Source of the DNA: TPA_inf: Saccharomyces
Lineage: Eukaryota
Direction: 5' to 3'
Length of the DNA stretch: 64,000 bases
Assembly (NCBI GenBank): GCA_000146045.2
Contig: BK006944.2
Span: 352,001-416,000 of the forward strand
Below are positions 30,716 through 50,080 of this stretch, piece by piece. Below the pieces are notes generated by a model that did no database searches, had not been told where the DNA came from, and saw only the letters and a list, made by a program, of their open reading frames with translations. The translations under genes and the position numbers were made by a program. The stretch's first letter is position 1. The number at the start of each line of letters is the position of its first letter.

Positions 30716-32725
30716 CTACAATTGGTTGGTGTGCACCGATGGGTCATGTTGGACCTTGATCATAGGTCTGTACACAGGCTCCCACATTTGGGCTTTGACC
30801 CACTGTAAACATTCGTCAAAGTCACGAGGAACCTTGACAGTTTCGCCGGGAGCTCCTCCCGGTACTTGTTCTTGCTCGATACGGGCGGTTCCCTCCTCGA
30901 GTGCTTGCAAGATCACAGCGGTAGCTAGACGCGCAGAAGTGTTGGTGATGGTGTCCAGGCCGGGTAGCAACCCAGGTCTCGAGTCGCCCTCTCTTAGTGG
31001 CGACAATTCGGCTAGTTGGTCCACTGCAGCGGAGATCATCTTGTCTGTGATGGTGGTGGCACGCGATAGTACGGCACCTAAACCGATACCTGGGAAAGAG
31101 TAACAATTGTTGTTCTCCGAGATACGGTAACCATCAACAGGTGGGAAAGGAGATCCGGTAGCTACAAGAGCGTTGTTGTTGGTCCACTTCATTAAATCGG
31201 CAGGAACGGCTTCGTGTAGTCTAGTAGGGTTGGATAATGGGAAAATGATCGGTCTAGGATTGTGCTTGTGCATTTCTTCTACGACATCTTGAGTGAATGC
31301 GCCTGCTTGTGTGGAGCAGCCAACCAAACACGTTGGTTTGACGTTCTCCACCACATCATGTAAAGAGCGGGTGTTGATACCAGCCCATTCCGCATCACTC
31401 TTAGCGTATACGTGTTGGGCGGGAGTGGAGTTAGCCTCGTAAGATTGTAGAATTAACCCACGTCTGTCCATCAAGAAGATTTTCTTGCGCGCTTCTTCCT
31501 TGTCAACGCCGTGCGTGACCATATGATTCACAATTTGATCTGCGATACCGAGGCCCGCAGACCCGGCACCGTAAATAAGCACTCTGGTGTCTTTCAAGTC
31601 TCTGTTGGTATGTTTCAAAGCAGCAATCAACGAGGCCATCACGACGGCACCGGTGCCCTGAATGTCATCGTTGAATGATGGCAATTCGTACCTGTACTTT
31701 TCTAGTAATCTTCTAGCGTTCTTAACACCGAAATCTTCGAAATGCAGAACGGCGCTTGGATACACTTTCTTAACGGCCTTGATGAATTTTTCCAAGAAGT
31801 CGTCATATTGCTTACCCCTGATTCTGGAGAACTTGTTACCCATGTACAATTCGTCACGGGCTAGTTTCTTGTTGTTAGTACCGACGTCCAAACACACAGG
31901 TAGCACACGGCCGGGATGAATACCACCGCACAGCGTCATCAATGCCAATTTGGAGATAGCAATACGTACACCACCGATACCTTGGTCACCAATTCCCAGA
32001 ATACCTTCCGAATCCGACACAACGATGTAGTCTACATCTTTGTCTCCACCGTATGTAGCCAATCTACATTCGATGGAATCAGGTTCGGTAATGTCTAAAA
32101 ACACACCTTCTGGCTTTCTGAACCTGTGGGAATAGGCAGCAATAGCATCACCTTCGGTTGGGGTGTAAATGATAGGAACTAATTCCTTGATATGTCTCCT
32201 TATTAATGCAAAATATAGGACTTTGTTCTGTACTCTCAAAGACGTCATGAAGTCGTTTTTGGCCAAGGGCGTCTTCAAATAGCATAACTGCTTGTAGCTT
32301 CTTTCCAGTTGTTCGTCCAAAGTGTTCACTTGTGGTGGTAGCAATGCTTCTAAATTAAACGCTTCCCTTTCTTCTTGTGTAAATGCAGAACCCTTGTTAA
32401 ATAAAGGAGAGTTTAAAAGTTGAAAGCTCTCCAAGGGACATTCTATGGCACCTTCTACAGTCAAACGAGTGGCATGTGGGTGAGGAGCTTCGAAGATCTT
32501 TCTGGCGCGAGAACCGACGGGTGTTTTAGTGACCTCCTCGTCGCTGTATGGCTTTTGGAAAGTATTTTCTCTTGTTGTGGTAGCTTTATGCGATCTAGTG
32601 TTAGAAGAATATAAACGCGATTGCTGAATAGGCCATCTTCTTAATGGTGCTGTCCTTGATGCTGTCAAGGATCTGGTTAGTTGCGATCTAGCAGCAACGG
32701 AAACGGATAGTCTGGTTCTAAGCAT
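30716..32725 (-). CDS. MAE1: Mitochondrial NAD(P)-dependent malic enzyme (669 aa). The ORF has 13 extra in-frame codons upstream.
   Basis: MLRTRLSVSVAARSQLTRSLTASRTAPLRRW presequence, then malic enzyme domains (IYTPTEGDAIAAYSH, VVSDSEGILGIGDQG, GAGSAGLGIADQI). Confidence 0.93.
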   Translation of the reverse strand: MLRTRLSVSVAARSQLTRSLTASRTAPLRRWPIQQSRLYSSNTRSHKATTTRENTFQKPYSDEEVTKTPVGSRARKIFEAPHPHATRLTVEGAIECPLESFQLLNSPLFNKGSAFTQEEREAFNLEALLPPQVNTLDEQLERSYKQLCYLKTPLAKNDFMTSLRVQNKVLYFALIRRHIKELVPIIYTPTEGDAIAAYSHRFRKPEGVFLDITEPDSIECRLATYGGDKDVDYIVVSDSEGILGIGDQGIGGVRIAISKLALMTLCGGIHPGRVLPVCLDVGTNNKKLARDELYMGNKFSRIRGKQYDDFLEKFIKAVKKVYPSAVLHFEDFGVKNARRLLEKYRYELPSFNDDIQGTGAVVMASLIAALKHTNRDLKDTRVLIYGAGSAGLGIADQIVNHMVTHGVDKEEARKKIFLMDRRGLILQSYEANSTPAQHVYAKSDAEWAGINTRSLHDVVENVKPTCLVGCSTQAGAFTQDVVEEMHKHNPRPIIFPLSNPTRLHEAVPADLMKWTNNNALVATGSPFPPVDGYRISENNNCYSFPGIGLGAVLSRATTITDKMISAAVDQLAELSPLREGDSRPGLLPGLDTITNTSARLATAVILQALEEGTARIEQEQVPGGAPGETVKVPRDFDECLQWVKAQMWEPVYRPMIKVQHDPSVHTNQL

Positions 32726-33103
32726 AACCGTATTTCTACCTTTTGTCTTGGTATTTATGTGCACTAAACTCGTTAAAAGTTGTAGGTTTCAAAAGCACAA
32801 ATATCCGAAGCTGGACACAATATACGAGTAAGTATAAAGATACGCATATATATATATATATAATATGTCAATCATGCCGGTAACGGGTACGACTTCGAAA
32901 CTCTATAGCGCTAAAGCTGTAGACCAAAGGAAGTCAAATGGAGCATACGCGGTACAGTAATAGGAAATTGCGAAAATTTTTCACCATAGAAAGGCGATGA
33001 TGAGTCGAAGCCAAGGGGACTCAGTCACTCAGTCAGCTGATGCGATGCGATGTTAGCGCAAACAATAACGCGTACGATAATAAAACTTCAAATGCGCCAA
33101 TTC

Positions 33104-33757: not shown

Positions 33758-35206
33758 ATGGATAGACCTATAGATGATATTGTGAAAAATCTTTTAAAGT
33801 TCGTCGTTAGGGGGTTTTATGGTGGCTCCTTTGTACTGGTACTCGATGCTATACTATTTCACTCGGTCCTAGCTGAAGATGACTTGAAACAATTGTTGAG
33901 CATAAATAAGACGGAACTGGGGCCGCTAATTGCTAGACTAAGATCAGACAGGTTAATATCCATACACAAACAAAGAGAATACCCTCCAAACTCAAAAAGT
34001 GTGGAAAGAGTTTACTACTATGTAAAATATCCTCATGCTATTGACGCAATCAAATGGAAGGTCCATCAAGTCGTACAAAGATTGAAGGATGACTTGGACA
34101 AAAATTCAGAACCTAATGGTTACATGTGTCCGATTTGTTTGACCAAGTACACACAATTGGAAGCTGTACAATTATTGAATTTTGATAGGACAGAATTTTT
34201 ATGTTCCCTATGTGATGAACCGTTGGTGGAAGATGATTCTGGTAAAAAAAACAAAGAGAAGCAAGATAAATTAAATAGGTTAATGGACCAAATTCAGCCA
34301 ATCATTGATTCTTTGAAAAAGATTGATGATTCAAGAATTGAGGAGAATACTTTCGAAATTGCATTGGCTCGCTTGATACCACCTCAAAATCAATCACATG
34401 CAGCATACACGTACAATCCAAAGAAAGGCAGCACCATGTTCAGACCGGGAGATTCTGCTCCATTGCCAAATCTTATGGGTACTGCTCTTGGTAACGACAG
34501 TAGTAGACGTGCCGGTGCTAACTCTCAAGCCACATTACACATCAACATTACCACGGCAAGTGATGAAGTGGCTCAAAGGGAATTGCAAGAGAGACAGGCT
34601 GAAGAGAAAAGAAAACAAAACGCTGTCCCTGAATGGCATAAACAGAGTACCATCGGTAAAACTGCTCTTGGTAGACTGGATAATGAAGAGGAGTTCGATC
34701 CTGTAGTTACTGCATCTGCCATGGATTCTATAAATCCTGATAATGAACCTGCACAGGAAACATCCTATCAAAATAACAGAACTCTGACCGAGCAAGAAAT
34801 GGAAGAAAGAGAGAATGAAAAGACGTTGAATGATTACTACGCTGCTTTGGCTAAAAAGCAAGCAAAGCTCAATAAAGAAGAAGAGGAGGAGGAAGAAGAA
34901 GAAGAGGATGAGGAAGAAGAAGAGGAAGAAGAGATGGAAGATGTTATGGATGATAACGATGAAACTGCTAGAGAAAATGCATTGGAAGATGAATTTGAAG
35001 ACGTAACGGATACAGCTGGCACCGCAAAGACAGAATCAAACACCTCCAACGACGTAAAACAAGAATCGATTAATGATAAGACTGAAGACGCTGTAAATGC
35101 TACTGCCACTGCTTCAGGTCCGAGTGCAAACGCTAAACCAAATGATGGTGATGATGATGATGATGATGATGATGATGAGATGGACATTGAGTTTGAGGAC
35201 GTTTGA
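33758..35206 (+). CDS. TFA1: TFIIE large (alpha) subunit (482 aa) with a C-terminal poly-acidic tail
   Basis: N-terminal winged helix, zinc ribbon CPICLTKYT...CSLCDEPL, and C-terminal EEEEEEEEEDEEEEEEEE...DDDDDDDDDE. Confidence 0.93.
   Translation: MDRPIDDIVKNLLKFVVRGFYGGSFVLVLDAILFHSVLAEDDLKQLLSINKTELGPLIARLRSDRLISIHKQREYPPNSKSVERVYYYVKYPHAIDAIKWKVHQVVQRLKDDLDKNSEPNGYMCPICLTKYTQLEAVQLLNFDRTEFLCSLCDEPLVEDDSGKKNKEKQDKLNRLMDQIQPIIDSLKKIDDSRIEENTFEIALARLIPPQNQSHAAYTYNPKKGSTMFRPGDSAPLPNLMGTALGNDSSRRAGANSQATLHINITTASDEVAQRELQERQAEEKRKQNAVPEWHKQSTIGKTALGRLDNEEEFDPVVTASAMDSINPDNEPAQETSYQNNRTLTEQEMEERENEKTLNDYYAALAKKQAKLNKEEEEEEEEEEDEEEEEEEEMEDVMDDNDETARENALEDEFEDVTDTAGTAKTESNTSNDVKQESINDKTEDAVNATATASGPSANAKPNDGDDDDDDDDDEMDIEFEDV
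34876..34933 (+). repeat. GAA/GAG/GAT codon repeat (poly-Glu/Asp) inside TFA1. A second (GAT)n lies at 35144-35180.
   Basis: gaagaagaggaggaggaagaagaagaagaggatgaggaagaagaagaggaagaagag. Confidence 0.9.
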
Positions 35207-42725: not shown

Positions 42726-45248
42726 TTATTCCAGTTCCATATCTGCGTCAAAATCATCGTCGGCATTATTACTTCCAGTTTTGCTGTCATGACCTCCCTT
42801 TCTTAGAGCTTTGTTATTCTGATCAAAGATCTCCTTTTGTGTTCTCAACCTTTTAGCCATGTTGACAGGGTCATAAGTCAATGAAGATCTTTTTTTATTG
42901 AGCGAAGCCTTGTCCTTACTTGCCTGACTCATTAAATTCGACTTGTCAATAAGTGGGTGGCTGGCATCCAATGATAACGTCACGTTTAGCTCTAGGGCAT
43001 TTTTCAAAAGCGCTGTTGCAGATGAATTATTAGGCTTTAGGTACAATGATTTGTGCAAATGATCAATGGCCTTTTGTAATTTCTTCGTCTTCAAATATAA
43101 GTAACCTAAGGAACAATGAATTTCAGAGTTTTTATCATTTTTCTCCAAAACGCATCTAAAACATTTAATGGCAATTTCGTTCTCATTTAACTTTCTGTAA
43201 GTGTGTCCTAGATTTAATTGAATTGATATTGTCGTTCTTGAACTTGGATCAAGATCTTTCACCACTTCCAACGCCTTCTTCAGGTATTTCTTGGCTTTGA
43301 CAAATTCGTTCTTCTTAAAATACATTACACCCATTTCATTGAGTACTAATGGATCGTTTGGACAAATGTCATATGCCAGAACAAAATACGATTCTGCTAA
43401 ATTTAATGAATTCATCGCCATAAACTGCATCCCGAGAAACAGTTTTGGTAAGTGCATTCCAGGAAAGAATCTGGAGGCTGTAGAGTATGCTGTTAATGCT
43501 TGGTCTTGTTCACCTTCTAGGGCATACGTGTGTGCAAATCCCAGCCATGCGGCAGCAAAGCTTGGATCCAGTATTGAGGATTTGGAATAGTATTTCTGTG
43601 CTTCACTAATTCTGTCCAAGCTCATATAATAGGTCGCAACGCTAAACCATGTTATCGCAGACTTCGGGAAAGTTTCCGCTAATCGATGCGACAGAAGGAA
43701 AAGCTTATTTTTATTTGATAGTTCATATAGACATCCAATGTATGCTGGCAAGATATTCGTATTAAATTCGTCGTTTTCCAAAACGGTCTCGCACAACTCT
43801 AAGCATTCGTTGAATTTGCATTGCGTATAGCAGATATCCACCTTACTTCTTACGACATCTACATTGTCAGCTAATTTATAATCTTTCGCTAAAATCTCAT
43901 TGGACTTCGTTATATCTTCCGTGTTGATGTATTTAGATAGGTTGATCTTATAAAGATTCTTCATAATCTCTTTATCTTCCCCAAATTCTTTGAAATCCAA
44001 AGAGTCAAACAGGTCCCATTCCTCTTGTGGAGTTAACAGGTTCTTGGACAGGAGCATTTCGAAAGCTTCAAAATTTTTTATATCTACCAAAATCGCTTCA
44101 CGAAATGCATCCCTTGCCTTGTTAAAATTATTTTGTGCAAAATATATTTTCCCTCTCAGAAAACATAATGATGACTCCATTTTTATACCGCCGTCAGTAA
44201 CTGGCTGTGACGTATTGCTGTTATTGCCATTATTGCTCATGGTGTTTGCTGCCGTCGTAGATGGGTCCTCGCTGAATGGATTGTATTCGCCTATAACATC
44301 TAGAGCGTCATCAAATCTCTGTAATTTAACAAAGGAGAGTCCCAACAGATATCGACACAGGATATTAACGCCATCCAAGTTGTTCCTGGTAATAAGTTCT
44401 ACAGCCCTTACGTACTGATTATTATTGTAATATACTTGGCCGAGCCAGAAGGCATCATCAGGATCATTGGATATGTTATACACTTTATCAGCAATATATT
44501 CTGCGGTCCTATACATATGCTGCATCAATGCGTCGAACCTCCAAAGTCTCAATCTTTCTATAGCTGACAATTCAGAAACATCTAGTTGAGTTGCTGTAGT
44601 TGTTGTCGTTAATGTTGTTGTCGTCAATGGCCCATTATGCCCTAGTTTACTCTCCCGATCATTATTAGCATTCGCAGCTGCATCGCCATTGTTATGAACA
44701 TCCTCATCATTATCTTCATCACGAACCACACCATCAACTGAATCCTTATATTCACGCTGTAAGCTCACCTTCCTTAATGTGGACGGTATGGTAGAACCGA
44801 ACATACTATTCTTAGACATAGAAGCTAACAAATTATTGTCGTTCACAACATTGCCCGTAATGGAATTGGAATTAGAATTAGAATTAGCAGATGGCTGGTG
44901 CGGAGTCATAATATTCGCTTGCAACTTCTGTATTAAAGGGCTATTTGCTAACGACTGGTAGGGACTCGTAGCCGTATTGGTTCTGTTCCAGGGTTGCTGC
45001 AAACGATCATTCTGAGCATCGGTTGGTAAACTCTGTTGTGTTCTTGCTGCAGATACGTTAGAAACAAATGGCGAGGCGGCCAATGTAGAATTATGTTGTG
45101 AATGTTGCTCCGAAGGCGACATGGGGTTTCTCATAAGTACCCTGTTTGACGATTTCAAGTTTGATGTGGCTTTTGATGACTTGTAATAATGTGTAGCCTT
45201 TCCACAAATAACGATATAACAATGACAGCAATAAAGACAAAACTTCAT
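42726..45248 (-). CDS. CDC16: Anaphase-promoting complex TPR subunit (840 aa)
   Basis: The C-terminal half is consecutive TPR repeats (AWLGFAHTYALEGEQDQALTAYSTASRFFPGMHLP...). The N-terminus is S/T/N-rich. Confidence 0.92.
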   Translation of the reverse strand: MKFCLYCCHCYIVICGKATHYYKSSKATSNLKSSNRVLMRNPMSPSEQHSQHNSTLAASPFVSNVSAARTQQSLPTDAQNDRLQQPWNRTNTATSPYQSLANSPLIQKLQANIMTPHQPSANSNSNSNSITGNVVNDNNLLASMSKNSMFGSTIPSTLRKVSLQREYKDSVDGVVRDEDNDEDVHNNGDAAANANNDRESKLGHNGPLTTTTLTTTTTATQLDVSELSAIERLRLWRFDALMQHMYRTAEYIADKVYNISNDPDDAFWLGQVYYNNNQYVRAVELITRNNLDGVNILCRYLLGLSFVKLQRFDDALDVIGEYNPFSEDPSTTAANTMSNNGNNSNTSQPVTDGGIKMESSLCFLRGKIYFAQNNFNKARDAFREAILVDIKNFEAFEMLLSKNLLTPQEEWDLFDSLDFKEFGEDKEIMKNLYKINLSKYINTEDITKSNEILAKDYKLADNVDVVRSKVDICYTQCKFNECLELCETVLENDEFNTNILPAYIGCLYELSNKNKLFLLSHRLAETFPKSAITWFSVATYYMSLDRISEAQKYYSKSSILDPSFAAAWLGFAHTYALEGEQDQALTAYSTASRFFPGMHLPKLFLGMQFMAMNSLNLAESYFVLAYDICPNDPLVLNEMGVMYFKKNEFVKAKKYLKKALEVVKDLDPSSRTTISIQLNLGHTYRKLNENEIAIKCFRCVLEKNDKNSEIHCSLGYLYLKTKKLQKAIDHLHKSLYLKPNNSSATALLKNALELNVTLSLDASHPLIDKSNLMSQASKDKASLNKKRSSLTYDPVNMAKRLRTQKEIFDQNNKALRKGGHDSKTGSNNADDDFDADMELE

Positions 45249-45343: not shown

Positions 45344-46750
45344 TTATTCAAGTTCTACTGATACTTTACTCTTCTTCAATTGCTTCCGCTTCTTTTTATT
45401 GAGTTTCTTCTTCTCACCAAACATTATCTTCTTTAATTCTTCGGTATCACTTTCCACCTCACTTTGGTCACCTATATCAGCTGTTTCAGCATCCCTCTTC
45501 TTCATTGTGTTGTATTTCTCAATGCTTTCATCGCATAGCGTTAAGCAATTTAGCCTTTCGCCACAGTCGTAGACTGCTACTTGTTCTTTTGTAGACATAT
45601 CCCATACGACAATTTTACCATCAGAACCAATGGTGACTAGGTAGGTACCAAATTCATTCGTATAAAACTTGAAATCTTTAATACGGTTTGTGTGACCCAA
45701 TAAAGAAAAAGCGGGGCTGATATCCTCCTTGTCGTCATCATCTTCCTGCTTTTCATTTTCTTCAACTTTTTCGAATAACTCCTCACAAGGATAGAAATGA
45801 ACATTACCATCGCTGATACCAACAGAAAGGTATTCCTTATTATCGAATGGTAAAATATGTGTTTCAATATGCATAAGAGTTTTCCTTTGAAAGACTATTT
45901 CTTTAAAAACTTTAGCCGATCCAGTTTCATAAATAAGCACCCTATCCCTTAAACCCACGGCAAAATAATCACCTTTGGCGCCTAACCATCTAACACAAGT
46001 CCCGTTTGTATTATATTTTCTTAGTTTTAGTACAGCAGCATTTCTTAGAGTCATCAAATTCCAAAGACGTATAGAATGGTCATCACTAACACTGATGGCA
46101 ATTCTATTGGTGGGGTGAATATCCACATCATTAACCCTTGCCGTGTGTCCCTTTAAAGTCCCCACTGTTTCCCAGTCCTTTACTCTCCAAACCATAATTT
46201 TGTGGTCTTCTGATGCTGATAATAACCATTTGCTATTCTTGCTCCCCTTTGAAACAGCAGCATCCTCACTGGAAGAAGCTGGATGTGAGAATTGTAGAGC
46301 AGTAATAGAGCCCTGATGACTTAACAAAGTACCCAGTTCCTTCCTCTTTTGCAAATCATAAATTCTGATGTGCTCGTCATTGGATCCAGAAACTAGGTAT
46401 CTTCTTGAAACAGCCAAACATTTAATACTCAACGAATGGGCTTGAAAATGAAATATTGGCATAAAATGTGGTGTCTTTGCTGCATCATTTTCCTTTTGAT
46501 TTGGGATATCTAAGGATAAACACAAAATGTTGTGCTCGTATGAGCCCACAATGATACGAAATTGGTTCTTGTCGCCTATAGCACTCATTTTTCTACACGA
46601 ATTCTTGACTTGGCCCTTAGGATCTTTTCGAGATGAGGTACCATGAGTTTTCAATTTTTCATGTTCTAAAAAATTTTCGGCCTTGATCTTGAACTTTATA
46701 ATTCTAAGCAAAAAAAAAATGAAGACAGTATAAGTAGTATTCAGTAACAT
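45344..46750 (-). CDS. MAK11: WD40-repeat 60S ribosome biogenesis factor Mak11. I placed the start at the second ATG (468 aa), but sequence evidence suggests the true start may be ATG at 46588 (MSAIGDKNQ..., 414 aa).
   Basis: WD repeats (LLSASEDHKIMVWRV, ISVSDDHSIRLWNL). The first 54-60 codons of the longest ORF are hydrophobic and AT-rich (MNFIFFMLLNTTYTVFIFFLL) and contain RRPE/PAC-like motifs. Confidence 0.8.
   Translation of the reverse strand: MLLNTTYTVFIFFLLRIIKFKIKAENFLEHEKLKTHGTSSRKDPKGQVKNSCRKMSAIGDKNQFRIIVGSYEHNILCLSLDIPNQKENDAAKTPHFMPIFHFQAHSLSIKCLAVSRRYLVSGSNDEHIRIYDLQKRKELGTLLSHQGSITALQFSHPASSSEDAAVSKGSKNSKWLLSASEDHKIMVWRVKDWETVGTLKGHTARVNDVDIHPTNRIAISVSDDHSIRLWNLMTLRNAAVLKLRKYNTNGTCVRWLGAKGDYFAVGLRDRVLIYETGSAKVFKEIVFQRKTLMHIETHILPFDNKEYLSVGISDGNVHFYPCEELFEKVEENEKQEDDDDKEDISPAFSLLGHTNRIKDFKFYTNEFGTYLVTIGSDGKIVVWDMSTKEQVAVYDCGERLNCLTLCDESIEKYNTMKKRDAETADIGDQSEVESDTEELKKIMFGEKKKLNKKKRKQLKKSKVSVELE
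46629..46678. promoter_or_regulatory. RiBi promoter motifs: RRPE (aaaaaattttc, 46668-46678) and a PAC-like gagatgag (46629-46637), upstream of the conserved MAK11 start
   Basis: Motif matches read directly. MAK11 is a ribosome biogenesis gene, and that class typically carries PAC and RRPE elements. Confidence 0.4.
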
Positions 46751-46831
46751 AAAGAAGATAAAATTCAAAAATGCAAAATAATAAAAAATGAATCTATATA
46801 GTGTAAGGATTATGTAGCTAGAAAAATGTCT

Positions 46832-49800
46832 TTAATTGACTCGCATGTCGTTTAGAATGTTATTGTTTTGAAACTTCGATAACTGCATTTTAAAAGAGGT
46901 TTTCATCCTTTCGTTGCCTAGTAGTACCTTGGCTAAACCAATTCTTAAATATTCCTGAACAATTTTGGATAAATTATGAAACATATCATCATCTTTCCCC
47001 AAATTCGATAATGTGAAACATAATAAGAGTACTAAAGTTAAGGGGATCCAAAAGAATAGGAGCATCTTATCATTCTGAAAGTTTTGCTTCTTGGAAAAGA
47101 TTGTGTTGAACCCGACCTGTAAAGCTTCTAATTCATCGTCTTCAGAAGAAGTTTGAGAATCATCCACGGTCATTTGGGCAGAATTATCTGGCCCAATCTC
47201 CACAGATTTGCTACCAAGTTCCCAGTTTTTGGGTTTTTTTGGGAACAAGTCTTCATACTTTGGGAGCTCGTCATTTAAACGAGTTAGCATTCTGTTCCAT
47301 AAAGATCCGTCAGGCTCTATGCTAGTCTTAGTAGTTTTTGGTATTTCATTTGGCTTTGAAGAGAAGTCCTTGATTTTGTGGGTGTTAAAGAACTCCAAAG
47401 CAATCTCATCTGAAGATGATTCACAATCACTTATGTCATAACCTGAATCCGAATCTAGGATTGAGAATGACGTATTGTCATTACAGTTGGATTGTTCGGG
47501 GGCAAGGGCAGCGGAATCCGCCAATAAATATTTTCTTTCTTGGACATAGTCATGATCAGCATCGTCATCATCAAATAAACTTGAGTTGAAACTTGACTGG
47601 GATACATTTCTCTCAAACGGTTGAGTATCACTGGATCCTGTTGTATTCTTCGTTAATCTAGTCAGAATGTCGTCAAACAGACTGGTTTCATAATTAGAAT
47701 ATCTGGTCTTGTTGACAGTATAATTCATCAGGAAGAACTGTTTAGCGATAAAGCCGTTTCTGGTTTTCTTCATAATATTAACGTTGCATTCTAACAATAG
47801 TCTTATAATTCTCAAGTCACCATTAATACACGCCATATGTAGCGGAGTAAAACCAAATAAATCTTGGTCGTTCAAATGCGACCCATATTTGATTAGTAAT
47901 GAGACAAGACTATACCAGTTATTGAATGCTGCCAGATGTAATAGAGTTCTACCCCTAACGTCACACATGGAAAGATTGACGGTAGAGAGATTATTATTTC
48001 TCTTAAATGACTTAATAACTTCAGTGATCAATTGTTCATCGTTTATATTTCGCATCATATTCGTGTACGAATTTAAAGAGCTATTCTGTGAGTGTAATCC
48101 TGCGTTATTATTAGATGGAGATGAATCACTGCCAACAATCCTTTTAGCAATATTTCTTGCATCTTCCAGTTTACCGTTCATTTTCAGCCCCACAATTTGC
48201 AGAGCCAATTCAATTAGTTGCCTATCAGTATCATCAACATAAGTAAAGATTGCTTTCTCACCGGTATACTTGTTTAAGTGCAGAATGTCATTGGTACTAT
48301 TGCTGGTGGAAACACTACTATTGCTATTATTTCTCATAGACGTTTCACTTGGGTCGACTATGGTTACCAAAACCGGTCCAGGTTTAGATGAAGGCGGTAA
48401 ATAAGTCACCATCGTAGATTCATTCCAGCATTGGCTGGACAATGCTATATTTTCGCCAAACTTGATGATTAAGCCCTGCTTAAACTTTGAGCCAAGTAGA
48501 GTCACTTCTATACCTCCGTTGATGGAACCTTGTGCGGGGATGACACGCTGAATAGAAGGCTTGTTATTTAGCGCCACGGGGACACTATTATGGTTCGATA
48601 TATCTTTGGAAGAATCGATGAATTTCTGGGGAAGACGGGAAAACGTATTAGGCGTAGACATAAAAGGCTCGTTTACCGAACGCTGCCTCTTGCCAGTGTG
48701 TCTCGCAGAGGCCGCACTGAAATCACTAGTTAATGTAGTAAGAGCGGGATTAGATGAACTATTAAAACCTGTGGACGACCAAGAGTCTAGTGAACGATGT
48801 AAATTGTTGTCGTTGTTATTAGAAAAATGAATATCTGAAAAAGAATGGTTGCTGTCCTCACTGGAGGAATTTGGTGATGGAAAGTGTCTGTTGTTGTTCA
48901 TCATTGCGGTATTAGTCTTAATGTTGTTTTTGTTATCATTATCATTGTTGTTGTTATTACAATTGCTATCAAGCATACAGTTCGTAGAAATGACAAAATT
49001 TTTACTGTTAGAAGGCAGGGGGAATTCGGATGGGAAGTTTAAGTCACTTTGCGGCGATGAAAAGGATCTAGTGTCATTTGTCATTGGCGAAACCTGGGCA
49101 TTGCTGGTGCTGGTTGGAGTTGTGGTATTGCTGGCATTTTTCTTGTCCATGATCATTATGGGATCTGTTATAGTTTTCGCCAAGATATCGCCGTTATGGT
49201 CCCTTAGAAGGAACAAAACTACAAACCCGTTAGTTGCCTTGTGGTGTCTGCAGTAACAGACGATTCTCGTCGGTAAGTCGAAATTGATACAGTTAGAGTT
49301 ACCACTCAAACCGTTATTACTAATGATGAAAAGTTGTTTACTATTGAATATGATTGCTCTTTTGTTTTCGTTATTTTGCCAGATGGAGTTGTCGTTCAAC
49401 CCAGACTTTCTTCTCGACGCTCTTCTTTTTTCCCTGTTGATACATCTATTACAAACATAGGTCTGCTTGAAGTTGTTGCTATTGTTGTTAGATGCACACA
49501 AAAGAAAGGCGTCCAAGAAAAGAGTCCTTTCGTTGATGTCCCTATTGGGTATTGTCAAGTTGGTGGGATCGTCCGAGCTGGTGAAAAACTTGTCCTTCGC
49601 TATACAATCAGAGGGCAGATGAATAAAGAAGTTTTTTCTTGCATGTGCGTTTCTAATCCGAAAACTCAGCTTCATCTGAGTTTCCACCCTAGAAACCTTC
49701 GGCAACCCAATAATTTCTAGAGACAATGGAAGGGACTGCGGGTTAATGTTGATAAAATCCAGTGGATTCGCGTATGGCGTCCTCAGAGGTAGCTTTCTGC

Positions 49801-50080
49801 CAAATTGAACGTGTCGATCAAGCAATCCTTGCAAAGATGCGATGTCATCCCTGAGCTCCCCTTCATCTTCCTTACCTGGTGTAGTAGTACCTGCTGTTAT
49901 CATTTTCTCTTGGTTCAGACTCAATAAACCAGGGTCTTGCAGAGAGGACCCAGAGTTGAGCAGAGCAATATCCAGTAATTCTGATTCTAGTAAATCCAAG
50001 TCCGGAGAGCCATCGTTGTGCTGTATGTTGGCGCTATAGCTGTGGAGCATCGAGGAAACGTTTCCTGTGCCACTCATCAT
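46832..50080 (-). CDS. SPT23: ER membrane-tethered transcription factor (IPT/TIG + ankyrin repeats + C-terminal TM), 1082 aa; regulator of OLE1
   Basis: IPT domain VIPAQGSINGGIEVTLLGSKF, ankyrin repeats (GRTLLHLAAFNNWYSLVSLLIKYGSHLN, GFTPLHMACINGDLRIIRLLLE), C-terminal TM LLFFWIPLTLVLLLCFTL. The paralog is MGA2; this copy is assigned SPT23 by synteny. Confidence 0.9.
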   Translation of the reverse strand: MMSGTGNVSSMLHSYSANIQHNDGSPDLDLLESELLDIALLNSGSSLQDPGLLSLNQEKMITAGTTTPGKEDEGELRDDIASLQGLLDRHVQFGRKLPLRTPYANPLDFININPQSLPLSLEIIGLPKVSRVETQMKLSFRIRNAHARKNFFIHLPSDCIAKDKFFTSSDDPTNLTIPNRDINERTLFLDAFLLCASNNNSNNFKQTYVCNRCINREKRRASRRKSGLNDNSIWQNNENKRAIIFNSKQLFIISNNGLSGNSNCINFDLPTRIVCYCRHHKATNGFVVLFLLRDHNGDILAKTITDPIMIMDKKNASNTTTPTSTSNAQVSPMTNDTRSFSSPQSDLNFPSEFPLPSNSKNFVISTNCMLDSNCNNNNNDNDNKNNIKTNTAMMNNNRHFPSPNSSSEDSNHSFSDIHFSNNNDNNLHRSLDSWSSTGFNSSSNPALTTLTSDFSAASARHTGKRQRSVNEPFMSTPNTFSRLPQKFIDSSKDISNHNSVPVALNNKPSIQRVIPAQGSINGGIEVTLLGSKFKQGLIIKFGENIALSSQCWNESTMVTYLPPSSKPGPVLVTIVDPSETSMRNNSNSSVSTSNSTNDILHLNKYTGEKAIFTYVDDTDRQLIELALQIVGLKMNGKLEDARNIAKRIVGSDSSPSNNNAGLHSQNSSLNSYTNMMRNINDEQLITEVIKSFKRNNNLSTVNLSMCDVRGRTLLHLAAFNNWYSLVSLLIKYGSHLNDQDLFGFTPLHMACINGDLRIIRLLLECNVNIMKKTRNGFIAKQFFLMNYTVNKTRYSNYETSLFDDILTRLTKNTTGSSDTQPFERNVSQSSFNSSLFDDDDADHDYVQERKYLLADSAALAPEQSNCNDNTSFSILDSDSGYDISDCESSSDEIALEFFNTHKIKDFSSKPNEIPKTTKTSIEPDGSLWNRMLTRLNDELPKYEDLFPKKPKNWELGSKSVEIGPDNSAQMTVDDSQTSSEDDELEALQVGFNTIFSKKQNFQNDKMLLFFWIPLTLVLLLCFTLSNLGKDDDMFHNLSKIVQEYLRIGLAKVLLGNERMKTSFKMQLSKFQNNNILNDMRVN

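Follow-up and report, generated by a model that had tools for sequence, protein, structure and literature searches.

The annotated 5′ extension of yeast MAK11 is very probably promoter DNA

The genes SPT23, MAK11 and CDC16 lie on the minus strand of the 64-kb stretch of Saccharomyces cerevisiae DNA analysed here (contig BK006944.2, positions 352,001 to 416,000), which is called the window and in which all positions below are counted. The subject of this work is the start of translation of MAK11, the gene of a 60S assembly factor of the WD40 type, for which a 468-codon reading frame has been annotated. From comparison of the locus and its predicted proteins across yeasts we conclude with high confidence that translation of Mak11 begins at the downstream ATG, at 46588, and yields a protein of 414 amino acids (aa), with 46589-46750 being non-coding promoter DNA. 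An earlier note on the same DNA had proposed that the 5′ extension of the longest open reading frame (ORF) looks like promoter and not like coding sequence, and that 46588 would be the natural start of a 414-aa protein. Both proposals have held up, the first on the disrupted frame in relatives, the missing codon periodicity, the lack of homologues and the conserved motif blocks, the second on the agreement of frame breaks, substitution pattern, orthologue N-termini and ATG context. The features at the junction of SPT23 and MAK11, in the order of the gene strand, are the following.

46832-50080, minus strand: SPT23
46832..46834, minus strand: TAA stop codon of SPT23, in the same frame as MAK11 and the first in-frame stop upstream of MAK11
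46766..46768, minus strand: TTG codon, not an ATG, taken in the earlier note as the methionine of a 474-codon ORF
46748..46750, minus strand: upstream in-frame ATG of the 468-aa annotation, context TTCTTTATGTTA, T at -3
46589..46750, minus strand: 54-codon extension of the 468-aa annotation (MLLNTTYTVFIFFLLRIIKFKIKAENFLEHEKLKTHGTSSRKDPKGQVKNSCRK), read here as non-coding, namely MAK11 promoter and 5′ leader plus distal SPT23 3′ region
46586..46588, minus strand: probable functional start codon, context AGAAAAATGAGT, A at -3 and -1
45344..46588, minus strand: MAK11 coding sequence in the reading favoured here, 414 codons and a stop, beginning MSAIGDKNQFRIIVGSYEH, predicted 47.3 kDa

The MAK11 frame holds in-frame ATGs at 46750 (468 codons) and at 46588 (414 codons, MSAIGDKNQFRIIV...), and the distance to the SPT23 stop amounts to 63 bp from 46768, 81 bp from 46750 and 243 bp from 46588. 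The entire 243-bp spacer between SPT23 and MAK11 is open in the MAK11 frame, back to the TAA of SPT23. Of the two long versions considered in the earlier note, the 468-codon ORF does begin with an ATG, at 46750, but the 474-codon ORF, given as MNFIFF..., begins with the TTG at 46768 and was listed because the bacterial table of the ORF lister accepts TTG as a start. Public protein clustering merges Spt23 and Mak11 into one chimeric cluster, which has Spt23 as its representative and includes a predicted 1950-aa fusion; the merging probably stems from the shared frame without a stop across the spacer, and the chimeric Spt23 cluster masked S. cerevisiae Mak11 in the homology search.

The coding status of the extension was assessed with the loci of S. 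mikatae and S. kudriavzevii, which were retrieved via their Mak11 proteins and aligned to S. cerevisiae. The extension measures 162 nt in S. cerevisiae, 167 nt in S. mikatae and 171 nt in S. kudriavzevii, with indels of 1, 2 and 8 nt, and frame-shifting indels together with in-frame stops close it at -132 in S. mikatae and at -54 in S. kudriavzevii. In the three-species alignment of this segment, the fraction of all-identical columns is 0.53 and 17 columns contain gaps. Variable columns are spread over the three codon positions without periodicity (0.42/0.38/0.43), while the 450 nt after 46588 display the coding pattern (0.13/0.06/0.45), as does the 3′ end of SPT23 (0.12/0.04/0.44); the third-position substitution signature typical of coding sequence thus starts at ATG 46588. 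Conservation inside the extension is confined to short blocks, namely AAGATCAAG(G)CCGAAAA(A)TTTT, GAAAA-ATTGAAAA and an invariant GTACCTCATCTC, which is the pattern expected of binding sites. Protein variants within the species do not alter the extension, and are too few to inform.

Equally, the two ATGs differ in their surroundings. The initiation context is better at the downstream ATG (AAAAATG, AAAAATGAG, with A at -3) than at 46750 (TTTATG, TTTATGTTA, with T at -3), and both the ATG at 46588 and the A at -3 are kept in the relatives, as GAAAATG in S. mikatae and CAATATG in S. kudriavzevii. The position of the upstream ATG is also kept in both relatives, with the ORFs that begin there being just 17-18 codons long and, in S. 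mikatae, out of frame. The origin of the long ORF in S. cerevisiae can be seen in the T-rich spacer, which by chance lacks an in-frame stop and holds an ATG, so that the longest-ORF rule chose the upstream start. In simulated spacers of matched composition, open extensions that start with ATG reached 54 codons or more in 0.24% of cases and 20 codons or more in 3.3%. The yeast genome has about 6,000 genes; over-extensions like that of MAK11 are therefore expected several times per genome, though they are rare for one gene.

That the frame is open could also mean that two isoforms are made, with the 414-aa protein as the main product and a minority of long transcripts, restricted to S. cerevisiae, giving a 468-aa isoform with a young, partly hydrophobic and basic tail; such transcripts would come from upstream starts or from SPT23 read-through including ATG 46750. 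On any transcript that contains it, ATG 46750 is the first AUG, and the whole spacer is open in frame up to the SPT23 stop. We judge two isoforms improbable, as ATG 46750 stands in a poor context with T at -3, the tail is unconserved even in the nearest species compared, and chance alone gives such open frames in some genes. The narrower proposition that S. cerevisiae alone makes a minor 468-aa isoform, the tail of which is newly born from DNA that is promoter in its relatives, appears very improbable. If true, this isoform would represent promoter sequence caught while being recruited as coding sequence, and might explain an old report of membrane association of Mak11.

The protein family points to the same start as the DNA alignment. 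The extension is absent from all of the 120 best yeast orthologues, and the Mak11 proteins of S. mikatae and S. kudriavzevii, with 415 aa each, cover 88% of the 468-aa query. The first-strand motif is matched by 78 orthologues, and in 53 of these no more than three residues precede NQFRI (M-x-x-NQFRI), compared with seven in the 414-aa form and 61 in the 468-aa form. Residue 1 of human PAK1IP1 aligns at residue 64 of the 468-aa form. The first beta-strand reads FRIIVGSYEH in yeast and MELVAGCYEQ in human, and the 414-aa form starts within a few residues of this strand. Within the Mak11/Skb15/PAK1IP1 group of WD40 pre-60S assembly factors, the 414-aa form aligns from the first residue of PAK1IP1 (BLASTP E = 1e-37) and, with the yeast orthologues, from the NQFRI strand, whereas the 54-residue extension of S. 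cerevisiae is without a counterpart in any member examined. The check by alignment of Saccharomycetaceae orthologues and PAK1IP1 that had been recommended in the earlier note accordingly places the conserved N-terminus near the 46588 start, with the extension not conserved. No homologue of the 54-aa extension was found in a word-indexed search of 5.8 billion sequences, nor by phmmer in 1.84 billion representative proteins.

Orthologues of 48-56% identity to the query, from genera such as Wickerhamomyces, Cyberlindnera, Candida, Scheffersomyces and Spathaspora, carry hydrophilic N-terminal tails of 20-50 residues with a recurring short motif, VIKPTIIP or IKSALKGS. Such tails are missing from the closer M-x-x-NQFRI orthologues, and these tails of other yeast clades are unrelated to the extension of S. 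cerevisiae. A sequence search of the PDB with the 468-aa and the 414-aa form gave generic WD40 proteins only and no Mak11 chain. One paper says that PDB entry 6C0F contains resolved Mak11, which is presumably deposited as unknown residues without sequence.

That Mak11 is 468 aa long as annotated in the reference, starting at 46750 with a real N-terminal domain gained in S. cerevisiae, can draw on the 468 codons being the longest ATG-started ORF and on their listing for S288C in RefSeq. All of the comparative evidence, that is the frame, the substitutions, the orthologue N-termini, the missing homologue and the alignment with PAK1IP1, speaks against such a domain, which we consider scarcely credible. 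The extension had been described in the earlier note as AT-rich and hydrophobic. The low GC content is real, with 0.31 in 46589-46750 vs 0.38 in the remaining MAK11 gene, but the hydrophobicity is limited to about the first 20 residues, and the remainder is Lys-rich and hydrophilic. The best 19-residue Kyte-Doolittle window (LLNTTYTVFIFFLLRIIKF) has a mean of 1.52, contains Arg and Lys, and has a hydrophobic core of about 10 residues. An N-terminal membrane anchor or signal sequence in the extension was rejected, as this would call for about 18-20 hydrophobic residues without interruption, which the extension lacks. The 1988 description of MAK11 reportedly included membrane association, which counts in favour of a second, 468-aa isoform; the short and Arg-interrupted hydrophobic stretch, with its maximum of 1.52, would however make an unconvincing membrane anchor.

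What the conserved blocks of the extension might be for is indicated by two motifs of ribosome-biogenesis (RiBi) promoters, the ribosomal RNA processing element (RRPE, consensus TGAAAAWTTTY) and the polymerase A and C motif (PAC, consensus GCGATGAGMT) (PMC5416754). Upstream of ATG 46588, the following candidate elements are present.

46667..46679, no strand assigned: RRPE-like near-palindrome, gene strand CGAAAATTTTT, opposite strand TAAAAAATTTT, -79 to -91 from ATG 46588
46668-46678, plus strand: RRPE-like AAAAAATTTTC
46651..46661, minus strand: second, weaker RRPE-like stretch TGAAAAATTGA, 2 mismatches, partly conserved
46642..46662, minus strand: two out-of-frame ATGs, at 46662 and 46644, with ORFs of 3 and 19 codons, in S. 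cerevisiae only
46630..46639, plus strand, antisense to MAK11: PAC-like GAGATGAGGT, -42 to -51 from ATG 46588

The RRPE that the earlier note had located at 46668-46678 is present as a near-match in a conserved block, with one mismatch to the consensus in either orientation, and a perfect RRPE consensus occupies the equivalent place in S. mikatae and S. kudriavzevii. The PAC-like motif is equally present, with two mismatches and the GATGAG core intact, although its coordinates had to be corrected, as GAGATGAG occupies 46630-46637 and position 46629 is a C. On the gene strand, this site is the 12-mer GTACCTCATCTC, invariant in the three Saccharomyces species.

The two motifs had been taken as a promoter signature, which does not hold on counts within the window alone: AAAATTTT is not enriched there (13 occurrences vs 9.8 expected), nor is GAGATGAG (1 occurrence vs 1.7 expected). 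Pairs of GATGAG and AAAATTTT at most 60 bp apart occur twice in the window. The sole pair besides that of MAK11, at 32973-33004 (GCGAAAATTTTTC ... GGCGATGATGAGTC), sits in a spacer flanked by an ORF of 682 aa on the minus strand (30716-32764) and one of 482 aa on the plus strand (33758-35206). The signature does stand in the relatives, where the motifs are conserved, and across six genera, where they are enriched upstream of the conserved ATG. The scan covered 420 bp ahead of this ATG in S. mikatae, S. kudriavzevii and the six genera Nakaseomyces, Naumovozyma, Torulaspora, Kluyveromyces, Lachancea and Kazachstania. All six of these genera have the GATGAG core, at distances of 40-172 bp from the ATG; four have AAAATTTT at 60-186 bp, and a fifth has a variant of it. 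Within the 200 bp upstream, the six genera together hold 12 GATGAG vs 1.26 expected from the rest of the same loci (Poisson P = 1e-8) and four AAAATTTT vs 0.25 expected on the same basis (P = 1.4e-4). The significance of the putative MAK11 motifs is gained only through conservation and not through single-genome counts.

In the published layout of RiBi promoters, the RRPE lies 5′ of PAC, at typical distances from the ATG of 100-150 and 75-125 bp, respectively (PMC5416754), and Stb3 binds the RRPE, Sfp1 the RRPE-like gAAAATTTTc, and Dot6/Tod6 bind PAC (PMC8421047). With the promoters of the RiBi regulon (Bosio et al., 2017, PMC5416754; Shore et al., 2021, PMC8421047), MAK11 shares the order of RRPE followed by PAC close to the ATG, the conservation of the motifs in orthologous promoters and the lack of a canonical TATA box, as well as the nature of the gene product as a 60S assembly factor. 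It differs in that its sites are near-consensus, with one and two mismatches, and in that both the RRPE and PAC are nearer to the ATG than is typical. Since the PAC-like site is so near to ATG 46588, either the leader is very short or the PAC-like site is transcribed. Equally compact promoters are seen with PAC at -46 in L. thermotolerans and at -40 in K. africana, and the mRNA leader of MAK11 is probably short, judging from these spacings. The out-of-frame ATGs at 46662 and 46644 would be upstream open reading frames if they fell within the leader, which is a weak argument that transcription starts downstream of about 46643. For a 468-aa product, the conserved PAC and RRPE blocks would occupy codons 25-41, which speaks against the reference annotation, and conserved promoter motifs would likewise fall within the coding region of a minor long isoform.

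The room available between the two genes leads to the same start codon. Measured to 46588, the SPT23-MAK11 spacer is 243 bp long, as compared to 245 bp in S. mikatae, 253 bp in S. kudriavzevii and 181-418 bp in other genera. Measured to 46750 it is 81 bp, which is below the shortest orthologous spacer seen (181 bp), and under the reference annotation the SPT23 terminator would have to share these 81 bp with the MAK11 promoter. TATATA-type elements are yeast polyadenylation efficiency signals, and two features of this kind of region can be pointed out.

46795..46800, minus strand: TATATA, candidate SPT23 3′-end efficiency element, kept in S. mikatae, TACATA in S. kudriavzevii
46710-46719: run of ten T (T10)

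Together, the TATATA and the T10 run suggest that SPT23 3′-end formation may use sequence inside or adjoining the annotated extension.

In the arrangement that we favour, with Mak11 starting at 46588, translation from this ATG would yield the 414-aa, 47-kDa WD40 protein, and the 162 bp of 46589-46750 would be part of a compact 243-bp spacer that houses the SPT23 3′-end signals and the MAK11 promoter. The latter would be of the typical RiBi type, with the RRPE-like site at -79 to -91 and the PAC-like site at -42 to -51 followed by a short leader. From the literature, the RRPE-like site would be a target of Stb3/Sfp1 and the PAC-like site one of Dot6/Tod6, and the positions of the transcript start and of the SPT23 poly(A) site are likewise inferred ones. 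For 150 yeast genes, a transcription start site (TSS) downstream of the annotated ATG has been reported (Park et al., 2014, Nucleic Acids Research, PMC3973313), which fits the rate of chance extensions simulated above. With these mis-annotated starts, MAK11 shares the in-frame downstream ATG in better Kozak context, the conservation that begins at the downstream ATG and the origin from the longest-ORF rule; it differs in having been assigned from comparative sequence and not from TSS or ribosome footprints. Short Logan contigs with the 414-aa gene were considered as proxies for transcripts and rejected, one being a clone joined to a vector polylinker and another starting 2 nt before the ATG. 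The former, SRR10487822_10312, has a pBluescript/pRS-type polylinker at positions 1-26 (GGCGGCCGCTCTAGAACTAGTGGATC) fused at the GATC site 46692-46689, which makes it a piece of cloned MAK11 with its start 104 bp before ATG 46588 and without ATG 46750. A search of the available literature on the start codon, TSS or N-terminus of MAK11/YKL021C found nothing specific.

A number of observations weigh against the 414-aa start. The extension ORF is intact and identical in 4/4 S. cerevisiae assemblies checked, and its codon-usage score of 0.015 lies between coding windows (0.123 +/- 0.105) and non-coding ones (-0.140 +/- 0.127); both the open, identical frame and a codon usage that is not clearly non-coding can be counted for the two isoforms as well. 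S. mikatae and S. kudriavzevii are the only two other Saccharomyces species compared; the set does not include S. paradoxus, which is the closest relative, nor S. uvarum, S. eubayanus or S. arboricola. The PAC-like site departs from the 10-mer consensus at two positions and, at -42 to -51, lies closer than the typical 75-125 bp. A metagenome contig of the Joint Genome Institute (JGI), Ga0466774_0055811, has a C-to-G change that turns the GATGAG core into GATGAC. Finally, RefSeq still gives 468 aa for S288C (NP_012904.3), the 468-aa form not being among the UniRef sequences searched.

Beyond the T-run on its upstream side (from about 46720), the S. cerevisiae-like contig Ga0466774_0055811 (1-330) bears no relation to the window and may be a chimeric assembly. 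A scan of metagenome DNA with GTACCTCATCTCN{30,45}ATGAG for further Saccharomyces species gave chance matches only, with 0/120 loci encoding Mak11.

As regards the annotation, other annotators have independently settled on the short form: UniRef lists exactly the 414-aa sequence under the RepID MAK11_YEAST, and the annotations of several S. cerevisiae strains use it too. The assemblies with the 414-aa annotation carry DNA identical to the window; the same DNA is given different protein lengths, and the choice between 414 and 468 aa is therefore a curatorial one. The over-extension of MAK11 is an annotation error of an ordinary kind, and in some databases it has already been put right.

A similar case is found in the neighbouring gene downstream.

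42726-45248, minus strand: CDC16

In the 840-aa ORF of CDC16, the first 38 codons (45135-45248, minus strand, MKFCLYCCHCYIVICGKATHYYKSSKATSNLKSSNRVL) are not conserved, with low identity and frame-shifting indels, and the Cdc16 proteins of S. mikatae and S. kudriavzevii begin with MRNPMSP, which corresponds to the ATG at 45134. Two S. cerevisiae assemblies place the CDC16 start at a position matching this ATG (802 and 804 aa). The codon-usage score of 45135-45248 is -0.228, lower than that of all 481 coding windows. Counted from ATG 45134, the spacer between MAK11 and CDC16 is 209 bp long (209 bp in S. mikatae and 213 bp in S. kudriavzevii) vs 95 bp as annotated. CDC16 seems, from these comparisons, to be over-extended by 38 codons in the same pattern as MAK11.

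The consequences of a start at 46588 are practical and not conceptual. The residue numbering of Mak11 is shifted by 54 between resources, RefSeq S288C using 468 aa and UniRef and several strain annotations 414 aa. N-terminal tags or exchanged promoters planned from the 468-aa ORF would end up within the native promoter, on the upstream side of the RRPE and PAC sites, and a deletion of the 468-codon 'ORF' would also take away promoter DNA and probably SPT23 3′-end signals. Predictions that derive from the false tail, such as a hydrophobic segment, an isoelectric point of 8.6 vs 6.8 and a mass of 53.7 kDa vs 47.3 kDa, would be artefacts. Furthermore, RiBi promoter motifs that lie within an annotated ORF can flag an over-extended start, and the same check points to CDC16.

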